A DNA stretch of 32,000 nt from Candidatus Jordarchaeales archaeon (GCA_038889235.1 JAWAHN010000003.1:438058-470057), one strand, 5' to 3'. Counted from the first letter of the stretch, positions 20,552 to 31,988 are shown. The notes: generated by a model not told the origin, from the letters alone. Numbers and translations: made by a program.

Positions 20552-21272
20552 CACTCCTCTACGGAATCTCTCCCCTTTTAATTTTTCTCGAAGTGGAGAA
20601 GGCTGCTTCTTCAACGAGCCCCTTCTTTCTCAACGAACACATCTCGGTAGTCGAGTTTCACTTCCAATTTACTAGCATTATTTGTGCTGCTTAGGCTCTT
20701 TTTACCTTTAGCCGCCTTCTTCGGCGCCGTTAGAATCACGATGAACAACATGGCTCCCTCCCTTCAACAATTCCAGCTTCAAAGGGGCCTATCGACTTCC
20801 TCTCTGCTCTCGGCACGCGCCGGCCACCCCTCCAACAATCAAGAGGGTTCTCGTGGAAAAGTCTTATTCCCCGCCTCGTCTAGTCCGAGACCTAGTAAAG
20901 CGTACCGGACTCTCCGTCTCTCCAGCAACTCTAGGAATTCTTCTTTTTCGGTTTCTAACGAGAAGGGTTTAAAAAAGGGCGAAAACCATTGCGCGATTTA
21001 GGCTTCAACGCTTTCAGGTTGAAGTAGAGCGAGGCAGCGCTCTTCATCGTTTTCTCGAGCTTGGGTTGCAAGGAGGTCGAGAAAAAGTCTTAAGGGGCTT
21101 TTTCAGAGCGGATGAAGTTATTTTAACCCTTGCGACGAGTAGTAAAGGTTAGAGTGAAAAGGAGTTCACTTGGAACCTCTCCACAGTGTGATTCATCTGG
21201 GTGGCACTTTAGCCGCGCCGCGTTGAAGCCCGGAAATCGGAGGGCGCACGCCGCCGTGGGGAAGGCGGGGAT

Positions 21273-22088
21273 CTAGGAGTTGGCGCCGCTCTTCTCTTTT
21301 TTCGGAAGCTCAACGTCCACTACTCCCATTCCCCCCGTCCTCTTCACCCCAATGTTCGAGTACGTGGCATACTCTGAGAGCACCGCGACCCATGGAGCGT
21401 ACCCGTCGGTTTTCTTTAGGTAGAAGTCTGCGTGGCCTACGAAGCCGGCCACCCTCCTCTCCTTTCCCATGGAGACGGTCACGGTTCTCAGCGAGTAGTT
21501 GCGCACGTACACGTTGTCTGAAACCCACTTGTAAAGCTCGTCCACGTCGACCTTAACGTAGTCTGGTGCGAAGGCGTTCCACAGCCTCGCAACGCTCGGG
21601 TAAATGTACCTCGGGTCCGGGAAGAGGAAGGGGAACTCGACGCCGTGCACCGAGAGCTGCGTCGGGGTCCTAAAGAACACTCTGAACCTGTCGCTGACCG
21701 ACACCCCCTCGATGAGCTCCTCGTAGCTCTTCCTCTTCACGCCCACCTCGACGAGTGAGAAGTCCACCTCCCCGAGCTTAACCTTGAAGTCGAAGAGGCG
21801 CTCCAGCAGCTTCTCTCCAACCTCGTCGACGAGGAAGCCCAGCCGAAAACGGAACTCGTCCCCAACCCTGACGTGGAAAAGGTCGCCGTGAACCCTCCCC
21901 TTGCCAACCGGGAAGGCCGGGGAGACACTGTAGGGTCTAAGCTGGTTTGGAGCGTGGAGAGCGTTAGCGAGGCCCGGGTCCACTTTGGCGAAGAAGCCCA
22001 GAAGCCCACCCCTAACCAGGTGCCCCGAAAACCGCCTTATGCCGCCCGAGCTAAGGGCTGAGACTTTAACCACAAGTCCCAGGGGCAT
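21273..22088 (-). CDS. cas6: CRISPR pre-crRNA endoribonuclease Cas6
   Basis: Gly-rich C-terminal loop YSNIGVKRTGGMG, RPYSVSP, FRTPT, LFPDP, GFVG motifs; next to a CRISPR array. Confidence 0.92.
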   Translation of the reverse strand: MPLGLVVKVSALSSGGIRRFSGHLVRGGLLGFFAKVDPGLANALHAPNQLRPYSVSPAFPVGKGRVHGDLFHVRVGDEFRFRLGFLVDEVGEKLLERLFDFKVKLGEVDFSLVEVGVKRKSYEELIEGVSVSDRFRVFFRTPTQLSVHGVEFPFLFPDPRYIYPSVARLWNAFAPDYVKVDVDELYKWVSDNVYVRNYSLRTVTVSMGKERRVAGFVGHADFYLKKTDGYAPWVAVLSEYATYSNIGVKRTGGMGVVDVELPKKEKSGANS

Positions 22089-22134
22089 GCACGTCCCTCC
22101 ATTCAGACCGCCGGAGAAACGCCAGCTTCCACAC

Positions 22135-23670
22135 TCATCCAGTTGACGTTAACCCTAGTTTTTCACCTGCAGCTGGCACTCCAATGGATGGGTGAGCATA
22201 GGGGGTTTGCACGTACTTCGTCCTCCTCGGCCTTATGTCGACCAGTATCGGCGTCCTCGTCGCCATACCTGTGACCATTGCGGTCCCGGTTGGCAGCAGG
22301 GGTATCCTTTCGGCTTCGTCGGCGCTCGCGTAGTCAAGGATGGGCTTAAGGTACTCTATGTCGTAGGCCCCCTCTATTCGCAGTATGATCTTCGTGCCGC
22401 ACTGCGTTAAAACATCCTTGTCGAGCCCCGCAACCCTCTGGCTCGTCAGGCACAATGTAACACCAAACTTTCTCCCCTCCCTGGCTATCTTCCTCAGCAC
22501 AGAAGCACAGTAGCTTTTAACCCCCTGCGGCGCGAACCTATGGCTCTCCTCCACCACCACGACCACCGGTGGAATCTCACCCCTCCTCCTCGCATTAAAA
22601 ATTTTCTCTAAAACCACCCCGACCACAGTCCTTCTAATCTCCTCGTCCACCCCTCCGCTCACATCCAGGACCGTGAGGTGGCCCGGCTTGACTAGGTCAC
22701 CGACCTTCACGCTCTCCCCGAAGAAGACGAACTCGTTCAGAGCCTGCAGCTTCCTTAAGATAGCCGCCAGCGTGTTCCTCTGGAAACCCCACTCCCTCGC
22801 AGTAGTCTTTACAGCGGCCAGCAAGTCGTCCAGCCTATACCCCTTGCCCCCTATCTTCCTGAGAGCTAGGTGGAGGAGGTCTGCCTGCGCGTCGCTTAGG
22901 TCGCACACCTCGGCTAGAGCATACGGGTTCAGGTCATCTATGCTTATCGACAGCTTCCTGTCTCCCTCTTCCCCCAGCGAGTAGACAGTTGTCGGGAAGC
23001 CTCTCGGCGCCAGGCCAAGCGCCCTCACCCTTTCAATTTCCTCCGGGTTGTTGTTCGCCTGCGAGAAGAACCTGTACTCTCCGTGTGGGTCGACAGCCAC
23101 CACGGGGAACCCTTTCTCGAGGAGTTCCTCAACGAGCACACCGACCGCGTAAGACTTCCCGCTCCCCGTGGCCCCTAGGACCGCAACGTGGTATGGTAAG
23201 AGGAGCTCCGGGCTCAGCGCGACCCTGACATCGTTATTCCCCCTCATGGTGCCAATGAATAGCCCGTCCGGCCTGAACTTTAGGAAGGCCTCGAGGAGCT
23301 CGGCCTTAGCCCTGTAAACCGTGTCCCCCGGCTCGGGTGGCACCTCAGGAGGCAGCAGCCTGTCCCCCCGCAGGACACCCACAACCCTAACCTTCGCCAC
23401 CCTCCACCTTCCAACTCGCGTTGGGAAGCGCGCCTTAACCGGGATACCTTCCTCCAGGTGGAATTGGAGGAACTCCGGGCTGGAGAAGTACTCGTTGTAC
23501 GTCTGGATCGAGTACACGCGGCCAATCATCACGCTCAGTCCAAGGGGGACCTCGACGTACTCTCCAACCTTCACCTCGACGTCCCCGGCAACCTGAAAGG
23601 AGAAGGCCAAGTGGTTTGGGGTCTGCCCGTCGCATATTATCGTTCCAAGCTCGACCGCACGCTCAGCCAC
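22135..23670 (-). CDS. herA: HerA-like ATPase with N-terminal HAS barrel
   Basis: HVAVLGATGSGKSY (Walker A), DPHGEY, VVEESHRF (Walker B), REGRKFG, SQRV; GTG start at 23670 after GGAGG overlapping the upstream stop. Confidence 0.93.
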   Translation of the reverse strand: MAERAVELGTIICDGQTPNHLAFSFQVAGDVEVKVGEYVEVPLGLSVMIGRVYSIQTYNEYFSSPEFLQFHLEEGIPVKARFPTRVGRWRVAKVRVVGVLRGDRLLPPEVPPEPGDTVYRAKAELLEAFLKFRPDGLFIGTMRGNNDVRVALSPELLLPYHVAVLGATGSGKSYAVGVLVEELLEKGFPVVAVDPHGEYRFFSQANNNPEEIERVRALGLAPRGFPTTVYSLGEEGDRKLSISIDDLNPYALAEVCDLSDAQADLLHLALRKIGGKGYRLDDLLAAVKTTAREWGFQRNTLAAILRKLQALNEFVFFGESVKVGDLVKPGHLTVLDVSGGVDEEIRRTVVGVVLEKIFNARRRGEIPPVVVVVEESHRFAPQGVKSYCASVLRKIAREGRKFGVTLCLTSQRVAGLDKDVLTQCGTKIILRIEGAYDIEYLKPILDYASADEAERIPLLPTGTAMVTGMATRTPILVDIRPRRTKYVQTPYAHPSIGVPAAGEKLGLTSTG

Positions 23671-23674
23671 TCGT

Positions 23675-25114
23675 TCATCCTCCAAACGACTTCTTCGCTC
23701 TCTCAGAGTCTCTAGCCCCCTGAATCTTTTCCAGCATGCCCAGCAAGCCCGCCTTGAGGCCGACCTCAACAGACTTCTCGAGCGACAGCAGGTTGTTCAT
23801 AGCCTCCTGCCTAGCCACGGAAACCACGCTCGGCCCCGCCTCGATTCTCTCCCTCAACGGGGCGGAGGTCAAAGTGTAAGCCAAGTCGGCAACCCTCTTG
23901 TGGTCGCTCAGCGGGTCCCTCGACACAAACTCGTACTTCGTCACTATGCCCCCCCGGGACAGGTAGAACTCGTAGACGTCCTTGACAGGAGGCTTACCCT
24001 TCTCCTCCCCCCTCTCTATCAGACACGTGGAGTCACCGTCCTTCAAGACCAAGGAGAGGAAGGCGAGGTCGTTCGCCTTACCCGGAATCCCACCGAGGAC
24101 CTTGCTGCAAACCCTGAAGAACACGTTGTCAGCCGAAGTCGGGCTAACCCCGACCAGCGTGACCCCCTTCTCGCGCGCCACCCTAACCAGCTCATAGAAC
24201 AACTTGTTGCAAGTATCCCTCAGCCTAGCAAGAGTCTTAGACGCCACAAGGAAGCCGTGGGGGACCAGCGAGCCAAGCCTAAAGTAGACGTCGAATTTGT
24301 CGCCGAGCTCCTCCAACAACTGTATCCCAAGCCTGTAGTGCTGAATCTCCCTCAAATACCTCGCCGCAATACTCCTCCCCGCCTGCAAAAGCTCCGGAAA
24401 GTCCGTGGAGAACTCGAAGAACGGGTCCCCCTCCCCGAAGGGCTCAAAACCCTTAAAAGCGTGCAAGTCGGGAATCCGCCTCCTAACCGACTTATCCGGG
24501 TTAAGAACACCTCGCTCAAAAAAGCCAACAAAACCCCCAACACTCATACAGACAACAGTCAAAACAGTAAAGTCGAACAACGCCAAGTTACGAATACTGT
24601 GAGCCGGAGCCGAGCCGGCAACACATACACCGTCAAGAAAAACCTCCCTCGCAAAACCCGGAAGAACAAGGCGCTCACCAAGAAGCCTAACAGGCAAAAC
24701 ACGCCCCCCAACAGCCACCCCAACCAGCCTCTCCCTAACCTCCTCCCCCGAAACCATCGGAAACTCAAGCTTCTTCAAAACACGCAAAACCTTCCCCGAA
24801 ACAGGCCCACCAACCAAGCCAGCCTGCAACCCCCCAAAATCCTCAACAACAGAAGTATAGGAAGGCTCAAAAAACAAATCCTCCCCCACCCTCCTAGCAA
24901 AATCCTCATTAACAACATACCTCCCAGCACCCCTATAAGACAAAACCCCCAAACTCACAAGGTCATCAAGATAATCCTTCACAGCCCTCTCAGTCAAATC
25001 AACCCTCTCAGCAAGCCTACCAACACGAACCTCACCATCAACAGACTGAAGCTCCAAACAAGCATAAAAAACCACAGCAAGCCTAGCCCTATAAGTCGAC
25101 CCAGTCCGCCCCAA
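23675..25114 (-). CDS. Winged-helix domain fused to NurA-like (RNase H fold) domain with degenerate active site
   Basis: N-term GRLAERVDLTERAVKDYLDDLVSLGVL wHTH; VCVAGS / REIQHY / YFRLGSL / LVGVSPTS resemble NurA motifs with Asp replaced; translationally coupled to herA; TTG start at 25114 after GGTGGTG. Confidence 0.65.
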   Translation of the reverse strand: MGRTGSTYRARLAVVFYACLELQSVDGEVRVGRLAERVDLTERAVKDYLDDLVSLGVLSYRGAGRYVVNEDFARRVGEDLFFEPSYTSVVEDFGGLQAGLVGGPVSGKVLRVLKKLEFPMVSGEEVRERLVGVAVGGRVLPVRLLGERLVLPGFAREVFLDGVCVAGSAPAHSIRNLALFDFTVLTVVCMSVGGFVGFFERGVLNPDKSVRRRIPDLHAFKGFEPFGEGDPFFEFSTDFPELLQAGRSIAARYLREIQHYRLGIQLLEELGDKFDVYFRLGSLVPHGFLVASKTLARLRDTCNKLFYELVRVAREKGVTLVGVSPTSADNVFFRVCSKVLGGIPGKANDLAFLSLVLKDGDSTCLIERGEEKGKPPVKDVYEFYLSRGGIVTKYEFVSRDPLSDHKRVADLAYTLTSAPLRERIEAGPSVVSVARQEAMNNLLSLEKSVEVGLKAGLLGMLEKIQGARDSERAKKSFGG

Positions 25115-25236
25115 AACAACACCACCAGAAATAAACTTCCAAAAAAACAATACAATACAAAAAATAAAAACATAACCCAACACCCAACCCCAACACCAGC
25201 AAACCCACCCCATCCTCCAAACTCAAACATCCTTTT

Positions 25237-25272
25237 CTTTCAATCCCCACTTGTTGGGACTGTTTTTGTTTC
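25237..25272 (-). CRISPR. Degenerate terminal (trailer) CRISPR repeat, isolated from the rest of the array by a 3,025-bp insert
   Basis: ctttcaatccccacttgttgggactgtttttgtttc: 34/36 identical to the array consensus. Confidence 0.93.
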
Positions 25273-28297: not shown

Positions 28298-31200
28298 CTT
28301 TCAATCCCCATTTGTGGGGACTGTTTTTGTTTCTTTTGGGGTCCCGGCTGAGGACCCCTCGGAGGAAGACTTCTTTCAATCCCCATTTGTGGGGACTGTT
28401 TTTGTTTCTTGGACGAGTTGACAAACGTCCAGAGGGAGGACGTCTTATCTTTCAATCCCCATTTGTGGGGACTGTTTTTGTTTCATAATATACATCACGA
28501 CGGCACGGGAACCAAAGGTTTCCGCTTTCAATCCCCATTTGTGGGGACTGTTTTTGTTTCTTTTGAACCCGTCCCTCGCGAACACCCATCGGAAGACCTG
28601 ACCTTTCAATCCCCATTTGTGGGGACTGTTTTTGTTTCGAGAAGGTGGTGCTGTTACCACCTGAAAATCGAACCGCTAAACTTTCAATCCCCATTTGTGG
28701 GGACTGTTTTTGTTTCTGGGAGGCGGCCAAGGCCATAGCCGAAATGGTGGAAAACTTTCAATCCCCATTTGTGGGGACTGTTTTTGTTTCCCGTTGCCAT
28801 GGTGTTTCCTCGTGGACTAGTGAAGTGTACTTTCAATCCCCATTTGTGGGGACTGTTTTTGTTTCTCGAAATGTTGGTTCCGGAGTCAGCTTCAATCTTC
28901 ACTCTTTCAATCCCCATTTGTGGGGACTGTTTTTGTTTCACGCGGTATTTCTGAGGCAAAGCGGCAGGTGGTACATTTTCTTTCAATCCCCATTTGTGGG
29001 GACTGTTTTTGTTTCTCCACGTGTTCGGGGTTGGAAGCACGATTACAATGCACCCTTTCAATCCCCATTTGTGGGGACTGTTTTTGTTTCCCAACATCTC
29101 AAATGTGCTCGAAGACGCCGCCAAGAACCACCTTTCAATCCCCATTTGTGGGGACTGTTTTTGTTTCCCCCTAACTCCCCCATTTTATTACTTGTTTCAA
29201 GAAGCCGCTTTCAATCCCCATTTGTGGGGACTGTTTTTGTTTCGCGGAGGCAAAGCCTCGCGAAGGCGGCGAACTTCCTCTGCTTCACTTTCAATCCCCA
29301 TTTGTGGGGACTGTTTTTGTTTCTAGTCGACGAACTCGCGGAAGACGCCGCGCCTTAAGAGGTCTTTCAATCCCCATTTGTGGGGACTGTTTTTGTTTCT
29401 AAACGCAAAAGCTTCATCCACACCTCTATGCTCTCCTTTCAATCCCCATTTGTGGGGACTGTTTTTGTTTCACAAGATAGTAGTCGAGCGACCCAGCGGG
29501 ATCAAATTTACCTTTCAATCCCCATTTGTGGGGACTGTTTTTGTTTCGATTGAAAGTTCTCATCCCGCGGGGCTCTGATCCCCAGCCATGAAACTTTCAA
29601 TCCCCATTTGTGGGGACTGTTTTTGTTTCAGCAGATAAAAGAGCTTGAGAAGGCCATCAGGCAGAACTTTCAATCCCCATTTGTGGGGACTGTTTTTGTT
29701 TCCAGAGAAAGCACCGCGCTCTCCGGCCTCTTCTTCAACCCTTTCAATCCCCATTTGTGGGGACTGTTTTTGTTTCTGCAAAGTCCTCTGGCACGTCTGA
29801 AGAGATGACCTTGTTCCACTTTCAATCCCCATTTGTGGGGACTGTTTTTGTTTCGGGAGGCTGTTGAGAAGTTGAAGAAAACCATTGAAAGTGTCTTTCA
29901 ATCCCCATTTGTGGGGACTGTTTTTGTTTCTGAACGAAAAAGACTGGGCACCTATCATAATGTATCACTTAGCTTTCAATCCCCATTTGTGGGGACTGTT
30001 TTTGTTTCCTAGGACACGCTAACCCAAAACCCGAAAGCCGCCTCTGAGCTTTCAATCCCCATTTGTGGGGACTGTTTTTGTTTCAAGAGATACCGGTGTA
30101 TCCTCCGGGTATAGGCGGAATATGCTTTCAATCCCCATTTGTGGGGACTGTTTTTGTTTCCCCGGACCCGGTCACTTGCAGGACCCTGAAGCATATCTCT
30201 TTCAATCCCCATTTGTGGGGACTGTTTTTGTTTCTAGTAACTTGAACGCCGACATGGTTGACGGAAAACACTCACACTTTCAATCCCCATTTGTGGGGAC
30301 TGTTTTTGTTTCTTGCGTGTTCGAGTTCAAAACAACGCGGAAGTTCACGCTTTCAATCCCCATTTGTGGGGACTGTTTTTGTTTCAACATCGTCCGCGAG
30401 ATAATTGAAATTATTAAAGAAATCTTTCAATCCCCATTTGTGGGGACTGTTTTTGTTTCCCATCCACCTCCAGCGATAACAGTGAAAACCCTAATAACTT
30501 TCAATCCCCATTTGTGGGGACTGTTTTTGTTTCGCGCGTTCCTACACGGCTACCCGACGAGCAGGGACTTCACCTTTCAATCCCCATTTGTGGGGACTGT
30601 TTTTGTTTCCGAAATCCTCTTCCGCGGGATCTCTGCTATATTTTCCAACTTTCAATCCCCATTTGTGGGGGACTGTTTTTGTTTCATGTAAAAGTGCGGC
30701 AGATTACCGGTCCGGGGGAAAACTTTCAATCCCCATTTGTGGGGGACTGTTTTTGTTTCTTTCGGGTCCGTGATCAGAACCGAGAGGAGCGGTGTCTCTT
30801 TCAATCCCCATTTGTGGGGGACTGTTTTTGTTTCTGCTAGCAACCATTTCAAATCTAAAAGGGCTACCAACTGACTTTCAATCCCCATTTGTGGGGGACT
30901 GTTTTTGTTTCTTTAACAAACGATCTCGTGTGGGGAAGCATTCCCCACTGGGTCTTTCAATCCCCATTTGTGGGGGACTGTTTTTGTTTCAGGCTCCGAT
31001 GTCGCCGAGTATCCCGGAATAGGCGGTGGCTTTCAATCCCCATTTGTGGGGGACTGTTTTTGTTTCGAGCAAGACGTAAAAAAACAAAGGGAAGCTGATC
31101 AAGAAGCCTTTCAATCCCCATTTGTGGGGGACTGTTTTTGTTTCGATTCTCGTCTCGGCGCTGAACAAGCAGAGGGAGAAGTACACTTTCAATCCCCATT

Positions 31201-31988
31201 TGTGGGGGACTGTTTTTGTTTCCTGGAAGCTTACGAATGGAAACACAAATTCAATCCATTCACTTTCAATCCCCATTTGTGGGGGACTGTTTTTGTTTCT
31301 AAGATTTGTAGTTTTGGGAGTACGGCATATCCACCGTACCTTTCAATCCCCATTTGTGGGGGACTGTTTTTGTTTCATACTGAGGAGGATGCTTGAAAAG
31401 AGCCACGTTCCAAAGACTTTCAATCCCCATTTGTGGGGGACTGTTTTTGTTTCGTCTTGGGCTTAAACTTCTTCAGCTTTTGAATTCGCCTAACTTTCAA
31501 TCCCCATTTGTGGGGGACTGTTTTTGTTTCCGCTACTAGGTCACCGTGGCGCTCCGCGACCTCAATCCACTCTTTCAATCCCCATTTGTGGGGGACTGTT
31601 TTTGTTTCGAAAGACGCCTTTAGATGGTGGAGAAAAGGCATAATCAACTTTCAATCCCCATTTGTGGGGGACTGTTTTTGTTTCGCCCCGCAACGCCCTC
31701 TTGATTTTCTCCTTCAACTCACTGTCTTTCAATCCCCATTTGTGGGGGACTGTTTTTGTTTCTTCTAGCGTTAATCTGTGTAGCTGGCTTGGTGTCACCT
31801 TTCAATCCCCATTTGTGGGGGACTGTTTTTGTTTCATTATAGTTTGGATGTATGAAGCTGTTGCACAACAGCTTTCAATCCCCATTTGTGGGGGACTGTT
31901 TTTGTTTCCTAACGCCGGCTTCAAGCTTATCACCTGCGCTTGAACTTTTTACTTTCAATCCCCATTTGTGGGGGACTGTTTTTGTTTC
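28298..31988 (-). CRISPR. CRISPR array: 49 repeats here (31 x 36 nt, then 18 x 37 nt), spacers 36-46 nt; continues to or past the right edge
   Basis: Repeat on minus strand GAAACAAAAACAGTCCCC(C)ACAAATGGGGATTGAAAG; CCCCA-CAAA-TGGGG stem ends at the canonical 8-nt ATTGAAAG handle; degenerate repeat at left end implies the leader lies to the right. Confidence 0.99.

Follow-up and report, generated by a model that had tools for sequence, protein, structure and literature searches.

In a 32,000-nt window of the genome of Candidatus Jordarchaeales archaeon (GCA_038889235.1, JAWAHN010000003.1:438058-470057), i.e. the whole stretch of DNA that was analysed, an operon on the minus strand (21273-25114) comprises a gene for a winged helix-turn-helix (wHTH) protein with a NurA fold (hereafter geneA), followed by the genes for HerA and Cas6, at a CRISPR array. 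The geneA-HerA pair is a previously undescribed, inactivated form of the known CRISPR-associated HerA/NurA pair. It is a variant rather than a new kind of system, because CRISPR-linked HerA/NurA pairs have been known in Thermoproteales since 2012 and have been catalogued without being assigned a function (PMC3396285, PMC3973734, PMC6546367 (clusters 57/58), PMC10910872). New is that geneA diverges extremely from the family models, carries a fused wHTH domain, and has lost its catalytic residues in a coordinated way, that type I-A/I-B and adaptation genes form its context, and that it is distributed in Asgard archaea. With a probability of about 0.55, we favour the reading that the HerA of this operon is a CRISPR-associated motor and that its NurA partner became a non-catalytic, DNA-binding adaptor.

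GeneA gave no match to NurA (PF09376) in Pfam, NCBIfam, or PADLOC, even at E-values ≤1. Its NurA ancestry is nevertheless established, because the fold match, the family profile, and the profile-profile comparison agree. An AlphaFold2 model was built from 20 homologues, with a mean predicted local distance difference test score (pLDDT) of 65. In VIA-align, the model matched S. solfataricus NurA (2ygk_B) with a Z-score of 13.8 and a root-mean-square deviation (rmsd) of 4.0 Å over 233 residues (chain 15-314 of 319), and further matches were D. radiodurans NurA (7f6d_G, Z 10.0) and the TdpAB partner (8wet_G, Z 9.4). The top four Foldseek hits were NurA entries, the best being 2ygk (E 2e-5), and T. 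kodakarensis NurA was also recovered. A geneA profile retrieved 78 proteins from 1.84 billion representatives; those outside the family were Pfam-positive NurAs, starting at an E-value of about 1e-11. Comparison of the geneA family with 27 Pfam-positive NurAs by hhalign gave a probability of 99.3% and an E-value of 1.5e-20 over 315 columns. The domain thus has a true NurA fold and ancestry, although it lies outside current family models, and the NurA/RNase H-like assignment made in an earlier, sequence-only reading of the window is upheld by both the fold search and hhalign. Solved NurA chains were not reached by sequence searches with geneA alone, its family profile, or the canonical NurA set; therefore, their residue numbering is not directly transferable, and the catalytic columns were located with the alignment of Pfam-positive NurAs and published motifs.

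The N-terminal winged helix that had been noticed in the sequence is a clear fold match. Residues 2-86 of the model align with wHTH domains of the MarR/IdeR/IclR/SmtB type with Z-scores of 9-10.3 and rmsd values of 1.7-3.5 Å; in Pfam, only weak matches were found (HTH_24, Rrf2). The NurA-like domain carries a conserved insert that is specific for the family (EPF..GEPFYE..TDFPELL). Across homologues with 31-93% identity, 60 columns are invariant, and the alignment shows the gene to be under purifying selection.

The active site of canonical NurA consists of D58, E116, and D133 in S. solfataricus, where D58A is nuclease-dead (PMC3326311), and of D51, E105, D126, and H411 in P. furiosus; mutation of D51 (or the corresponding StoNurA residue), E105, or H411 is reported to abolish activity completely or almost so (PMC3300031). 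We compared the corresponding columns in an alignment that combined 27 canonical NurAs with 40 members of the family and 12 intermediate relatives. In motif I, the core family has G-S-A/S instead of the canonical G-V-D-G-G, and none of its members has the Asp. Motif II, canonically R-x3-E, contains an invariant His (His259). Motif III has changed from D-G-S-(I/L)-V-P-H to x-G-S-L-x-P-H-G-F, with a variable x that is Asp in three sequences only, and the C-terminal I-E-A-D reads S-(V/S)-A-(R/K). The Asp-Glu-Asp-(His/Asp) columns are thus Ala/Ser, invariant His, variable, and Arg/Lys, respectively, and the loss of the canonical metal ligands is conserved across the core family. The non-catalytic NurA motifs are retained, i.e. 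GS-(I/L)-x-PH, the D/E of RDT and GERT, YxFY, and PSV. The earlier reading had deduced catalytic loss from the strings VCVAGS, YFRLGSL, and SVARQEA, all of which are present in geneA. It was right that the aspartates of both DGS motifs are replaced and that the C-terminal His is missing, but its register for motif I was off by a few residues, as Ala169 of G-S-A, and not the Ala before GS, occupies the position of the canonical Asp. Because 60 columns are invariant while the catalytic columns have been lost, the alignment indicates that geneA is selected for, but not as a canonical metal-dependent nuclease.

HerA, in contrast to its partner, has intact motifs. It matches PF01935 (DUF87, E 4.7e-30), PF05872 (HerA_C, E 2.9e-14), and PF09378 (HAS-barrel, 25.8 bits), and the motifs that had been read in the sequence are indeed there, i.e. 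GATGSGKS (Walker A), VVVVVEESH (Walker B), and REGRKFG. Walker A, Walker B, REGRKFG, and SQR are invariant in all 12 aligned HerA orthologues. Complex prediction for HerA and the NurA-like domain (residues 105-479) gave a score of 0.01 relative to a mark of 0.32, for which the tool gives no verdict, so that the value weighs neither way. The third gene product matches the Cas6 family TIGR01877 with 63.7 bits (cut-off 58.65), PF10040 (E 4e-13), and the PADLOC Cas6 models. A lone CRISPR repeat is 3.1 kb away from cas6, and the array is given as 3.2 kb away.

The geneA family is small and was found in Jordarchaeia/Freyarchaeia, Baldrarchaeia, Borrarchaeia, and a few metagenome-assembled genomes labelled Thermoproteota; its hosts are mostly Asgard archaea. 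A match is present in 22 of 400 Asgard-phylum species genomes, including six of six in one genus, a patchy pattern typical of an accessory gene. Wherever a locus is long enough to show it, the herA gene comes directly after geneA. In about 10 of 13 homologous loci, CRISPR arrays, Cas6, Cas1-Cas2-Cas4, or type I-A/I-B genes are located within 10 kb, which bears out the CRISPR linkage of the homologues. An array and Cas6 are found in the window, L018, and L029, and L013 has Cas6 followed by a full type I-A operon. Cas1, Cas2, Cas4, and Cas7 accompany the pair in L017 and the more distant L031, together with Cas8b and arrays on both sides in L015, and together with Cas8a and Cas3 in L035. A 79-repeat array abuts geneA in L021, and L023 contains Cas1. 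L019/L034, L024, and L016 (upstream side only) do not belong to this set. In four loci, HerA is followed directly by Cas6, and the array end facing geneA is the trailer in four of five loci and the leader in one (L021). Neither Cas10 nor csm6 was found in any of the gene tables that were read.

In the canonical complex, the HerA hexamer is capped by a NurA dimer, which guides DNA into the hexamer, and HerA, which does not unwind DNA alone, does so together with the nuclease-dead D58A NurA (PMC3326311). By analogy, a dimer of the NurA-like protein would cap the HerA hexamer and thread DNA in, while the winged helices would assist in loading the complex on DNA or in aiming it. Without a nuclease, the complex would be an ATP-driven helicase or translocase, like the S. 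solfataricus HerA-NurA D58A complex in vitro. Because of the neighbouring type I-A/I-B and adaptation genes, it would most likely serve type I CRISPR systems, with adaptation as the favoured stage, i.e. when spacers are acquired or the array is maintained, it may open DNA for Cas4-Cas1-Cas2 or feed DNA to them. The sequence-only reading had already proposed a nuclease-dead, DNA-binding NurA on an active translocase. This part of the proposal is backed by the intact HerA motifs, the wHTH domain, and the lost catalytic columns, whereas its roles as regulator, scaffold, or prespacer motor can only be inferred. A more specific version is tentative, i.e. that a nuclease-dead NurA ring with wHTH grips makes HerA a dedicated adaptation motor, which unwinds foreign or array DNA or feeds it to the Cas4-Cas1-Cas2 proteins of type I-A/I-B systems. 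If true, archaea would have in it a counterpart of spacer acquisition assisted by RecBCD/AddAB, in which Cas nucleases take over the cutting.

Several observations weigh against the adaptor reading. A non-canonical site could in principle be built from the invariant residues His259, His286, Asp329, Asp349, and Asp361, and the model is of moderate quality, so that active-site geometry is beyond its reach. Neighbouring adaptation genes do not distinguish a role in adaptation from one in interference or regulation, and the cas effector and adaptation genes nearest to the operon lie on other contigs of this assembly. In addition, a homologue with 72% identity (L019/L034) has no CRISPR array or cas gene within 10 kb.

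The pair might instead be an independent HerA defence or restriction module that shares islands with CRISPR-Cas, the NurA-like protein sensing or binding foreign DNA and HerA scaffolding or driving an effector in trans. This rival explanation survives best, and yet we consider it unlikely. It would fit with the patchy distribution, with the position of L019/L034 among TnpB and HepT genes without CRISPR, and with the distant wHTH-NurA relatives that retain catalytic columns and pair with HerA and a DpdA-like gene instead of CRISPR. HerA also scored higher with the generic anti-phage PADLOC model PDLC04105 (139 bits) than with the "Type III coevolved" Cas-HerA model (91.8 bits). However, no recognisable effector is left when the nuclease is dead, Cas6 belongs to the same operon at four loci, and the linkage with arrays, Cas6, and Cas1-2-4 persists down to 33-42% identity in several Asgard classes.

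Somewhat less likely is that geneA is chiefly a transcription factor. The wHTH domain would then bind to array, leader, or cas promoters, and CRISPR expression would be tuned by the NurA-like domain plus HerA as a sensor or remodeller. An obligate hexameric translocase as partner would be unusual for a repressor, no operator-like repeat was identified, and the type I-A loci linked to geneA already contain Csa3. The latter exemplifies, at the same time, that type I-A loci use wHTH regulators, and the domain of geneA is of the MarR/IclR/ArsR type. Also compatible are the conserved region upstream of geneA and its position abutting arrays, once beside the leader (L021). A wHTH domain is, however, also used as a non-specific DNA grip by helicases such as MCM and RecQ.

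We regard it as improbable that geneA encodes an active nuclease with a rebuilt site (e.g. His259, His286, Asp329, Asp349, Asp361), and thus an ordinary resecting Cas-NurA/HerA pair. A non-canonical metal site using His259 or His286 is possible, because the invariant His259 stands in place of the catalytic Glu; a related subgroup that keeps all Asp columns has this His as well, and several acidic residues are invariant. But Asp329, Asp349, and Asp361 match D195, D224, and E236 of canonical NurAs and are therefore not new compensating residues. Furthermore, both metal-binding Asp and the C-terminal His/Asp position were lost together, while a single substitution of the first Asp, the Glu, or the His/Asp is sufficient to kill the Pfu/Sto enzymes, as is D58A for the Sso enzyme (PMC3326311, PMC3300031). 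Lastly, paralogy is rampant in this genome (four canonical NurAs and eight HerA-like ATPases), but a housekeeping DNA-repair paralogue that is near CRISPR by coincidence is very improbable, as the linkage recurs in about 10 of 13 loci of different lineages, the catalytic residues are lost, and mre11/rad50 are not nearby.

The features of the window and additional loci are summarized in Table 1. The array is read on the minus strand toward geneA, in the same direction as the operon, because the reverse complement of the repeat ends with ATTGAAAG. Together with the lone degenerate repeat, this orientation places the operon at the old trailer end of the array, in agreement with the sequence-only reading.

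Table 1. Features of the window (first eight rows) and additional NurA and DUF2797 loci
Feature	Coordinates	Strand	Basis
GeneA, wHTH plus NurA fold, 479 aa, TTG start, without canonical catalytic residues	23675..25114	-	Homologue N-termini; fold and profile homology
N-terminal wHTH of geneA, about residues 1-85	24860..25114	-	VIA-align; weak HTH_24 and Rrf2 matches
NurA-like RNase H-fold domain of geneA, about residues 109-426	23837..24790	-	VIA-align; hhalign
HerA-family hexameric ATPase/translocase, 511 aa, GTG start	22135..23670	-	DUF87, HerA_C, HAS-barrel; start and ribosome-binding site
Cas6 endoribonuclease, 271 aa	21273..22088	-	TIGR01877, PF10040, PADLOC Cas6 models
Conserved region 5′ of geneA, T-rich TATA-like boxes, GGTGG before start; probable promoter (inferred)	25115..25200	-	Conservation with L018 and L019
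Lone degenerate CRISPR repeat, old trailer end of array, 122 nt upstream of geneA	25237..25272	-	
CRISPR array, at least 49 repeats of 36-37 nt, runs off contig end	28298..32000	-	Repeat ends ATTGAAAG
NurA loci of the same genome	C1:219203-221102, C2:153424-155414, C1:526238-528362, C3:313139-313927		
DUF2797 genes	L015:4700-5611, L017:3805-4701, L021:20487-21380, L023:9886-10779, L035:5663-6568, same genome C4:562-1383		

All three open reading frames proposed earlier are present, co-oriented, and closely spaced. The geneA frame extends back to an ATG at 25213; the 19 database homologues all start with MGRTGSTYRARL, so that the TTG at 25114 was taken as the start, as in the earlier reading. 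The longer version was ruled out, as its 33 extra residues are absent from every homologue. The proposed translational coupling of geneA and herA holds as close coupling without overlap, since the GTG of herA is 4 nt past the TGA of geneA (23677-23675) and a GGAGG lies within the final geneA codons. The ATG of cas6 is also preceded by GGAGG and is 46 nt past the herA stop codon. To the left, the operon is flanked by the heterodisulfide-reductase genes HdrABC/MvhD. To the right, on the other strand, follow a C-terminal PolB fragment, an ERCC4-HhH nuclease, an ORF of 102 aa, and an AAA/MCM-like ATPase, with the array beyond. No mre11/rad50 gene is thus among the neighbours in the window, as had been stated.

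About 90 nt 5′ of geneA are conserved with L018 and L019. The conservation holds even in L019, which has no array upstream, suggesting that geneA may have its own promoter. In a metatranscriptome (RNA-seq) from a different study, contigs with 95-97% identity to the operon cover all three genes, and one spans the Cas6/HerA junction. This is a weak hint that the operon is expressed in a relative, as the contigs inform neither on strand nor on level and may stem from carried-over DNA. RNA run X8 yielded no operon contigs, and in X4 the flank 20664-21319 was uncovered, but contigs cannot show absence.

The operon and the lone repeat are now parted from the bulk of the array by a 3-kb insert, which contains the PolB fragment, ERCC4-HhH, and AAA/MCM genes. 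The sequence-only reading had speculated that failure to trim DNA might relate to this oversized spacer; our analyses gave no evidence for a link between the geneA-HerA-Cas6 module and the insert. Two repeat variants occur in the array, i.e. one with ...GTGGGGACTG... from 28298 to about 30609, and one with ...GTGGGGGACTG..., which has one extra G, from 30647 to 31929 on the leader-proximal side. Metagenome contigs from the likely source samples end or branch at the lone repeat (25236-25272), with other continuations that include 38-nt pieces between repeat copies. This suggests that population variants of the array end exist beside the 3-kb insert.

The same genome (2.1 Mb) contains four Pfam-positive, canonical NurA genes, three of which adjoin HerA, as well as eight DUF87/HerA-like ATPases. 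Four NurAs were also reported for Freyarchaeum deiterrae (PMC13748450). These NurAs, two type I modules, Cmr2, and additional arrays, which lie at contig ends and have the repeat of the array in the window, are on other contigs or elsewhere on C3. Descent of geneA from a CRISPR-linked canonical NurA was not indicated, as P0060 and P0063, the canonical NurAs that come closest to the family profile, are in housekeeping contexts without HerA or CRISPR nearby. The distant wHTH-NurA relatives P0099 and P0103 (L032:4923-9337, L033:6873-11085) have kept the Asp columns of motif I, motif III, and the C-terminal motif, while the motif II Glu is His. Their genes are preceded by a DpdA/TGT-like gene (PF23859) and followed by HerA, and L032 also contains phage capsid and cement genes; these loci may represent a DpdA-NurA-HerA DNA-modification or restriction module.

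At L034 (2448-5417 and 8933-9121), TnpB/IS605-type genes and a HepT-like gene adjoin the CRISPR-free close homologue, which hints that the geneA-HerA pair has moved to this site. In the open frame around a Borrarchaeum family member, a genome-wide search revealed one in-frame TGA (G307:C4:146883-148289). In several Asgard loci, including one in the genome that contains the window (Table 1), cas1, or cas1-cas2-cas4 in loci of sufficient length, comes directly after a DUF2797 (PF10977) gene, which thus has the position that Csa1 has in type I-A systems. DUF2797 has no PADLOC model match and was detected in 132 of 400 Asgard species genomes with a hidden Markov model (HMM). It co-occurs with geneA in 10 of 22 positive genomes, compared to 122 of the 378 others; this comparison is uninformative, because the HMM misses the copy in the genome that contains the window.

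The geneA family is a CRISPR accessory family that is invisible to current Pfam, NCBIfam, and PADLOC models. Because the nuclease was switched off and the motor was kept, the pair argues that the CRISPR system needs DNA translocation or unwinding, and not resection; the added winged helix suggests DNA targeting. The sister branch next to DpdA, with intact catalytic columns apart from motif II, offers a natural comparison of active and inactive forms. With respect to the origin of eukaryotic immunity, there is interest in the defence systems of Asgard archaea, and the geneA family is found in these archaea.

Three known systems are available for comparison. The "Cas NurA" and "Cas HerA" proteins of Thermoproteales and other Crenarchaeota/Aigarchaeota (Bernick 2012, PMC3396285; Vestergaard 2014, PMC3973734; Shah 2018, PMC6546367) also form a pair of dedicated nurA-herA paralogues that is situated next to CRISPR arrays and cas cassettes, and Bernick et al. 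proposed that the CRISPR-linked pair acts in adaptation (PMC3396285). P. aerophilum has the gene order nurA-csm6-csm6-herA-cas6, whereas no csm6 separates the genes of the geneA operon. Cas-NurAs match Pfam NurA at E-values of 1e-7 to 1e-16 (PMC3396285), whereas geneA is not recognised, has an additional N-terminal wHTH, and occurs in Asgard hosts. Relative to the 27 canonical NurAs of the alignment, the geneA family has also lost the catalytic columns. The neighbours of geneA are type I-A/I-B and adaptation genes, in contrast to type III genes with csm6. The type III precedent invoked by the sequence-only reading thus applies to the maintenance of a pair beside arrays and cas genes, but not to the linked CRISPR type, although Cmr2 is encoded elsewhere in the genome.

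The second system is the canonical HerA-NurA end-resection complex (2ygk; T. kodakarensis 9x1l-n; 7f6d), which likewise combines an RNase H-like NurA with an adjacent HerA that has a HAS-barrel and a RecA-like ATPase. In contrast to this complex, geneA lacks the metal ligands, has gained the wHTH domain and a conserved acidic-aromatic insert, and is found in a CRISPR context instead of being linked to mre11/rad50. The third group are HerA-scaffolded anti-phage systems (Sir2-HerA, DUF4297-HerA, and TdpAB, 8wet), in which the partner is also encoded immediately upstream of HerA; the TdpAB partner is a structural neighbour of geneA, and HerA matches PADLOC anti-phage HerA models. In these systems, the partner is an active effector (NADase or nuclease), whereas geneA appears to be catalytically dead and tied to CRISPR.

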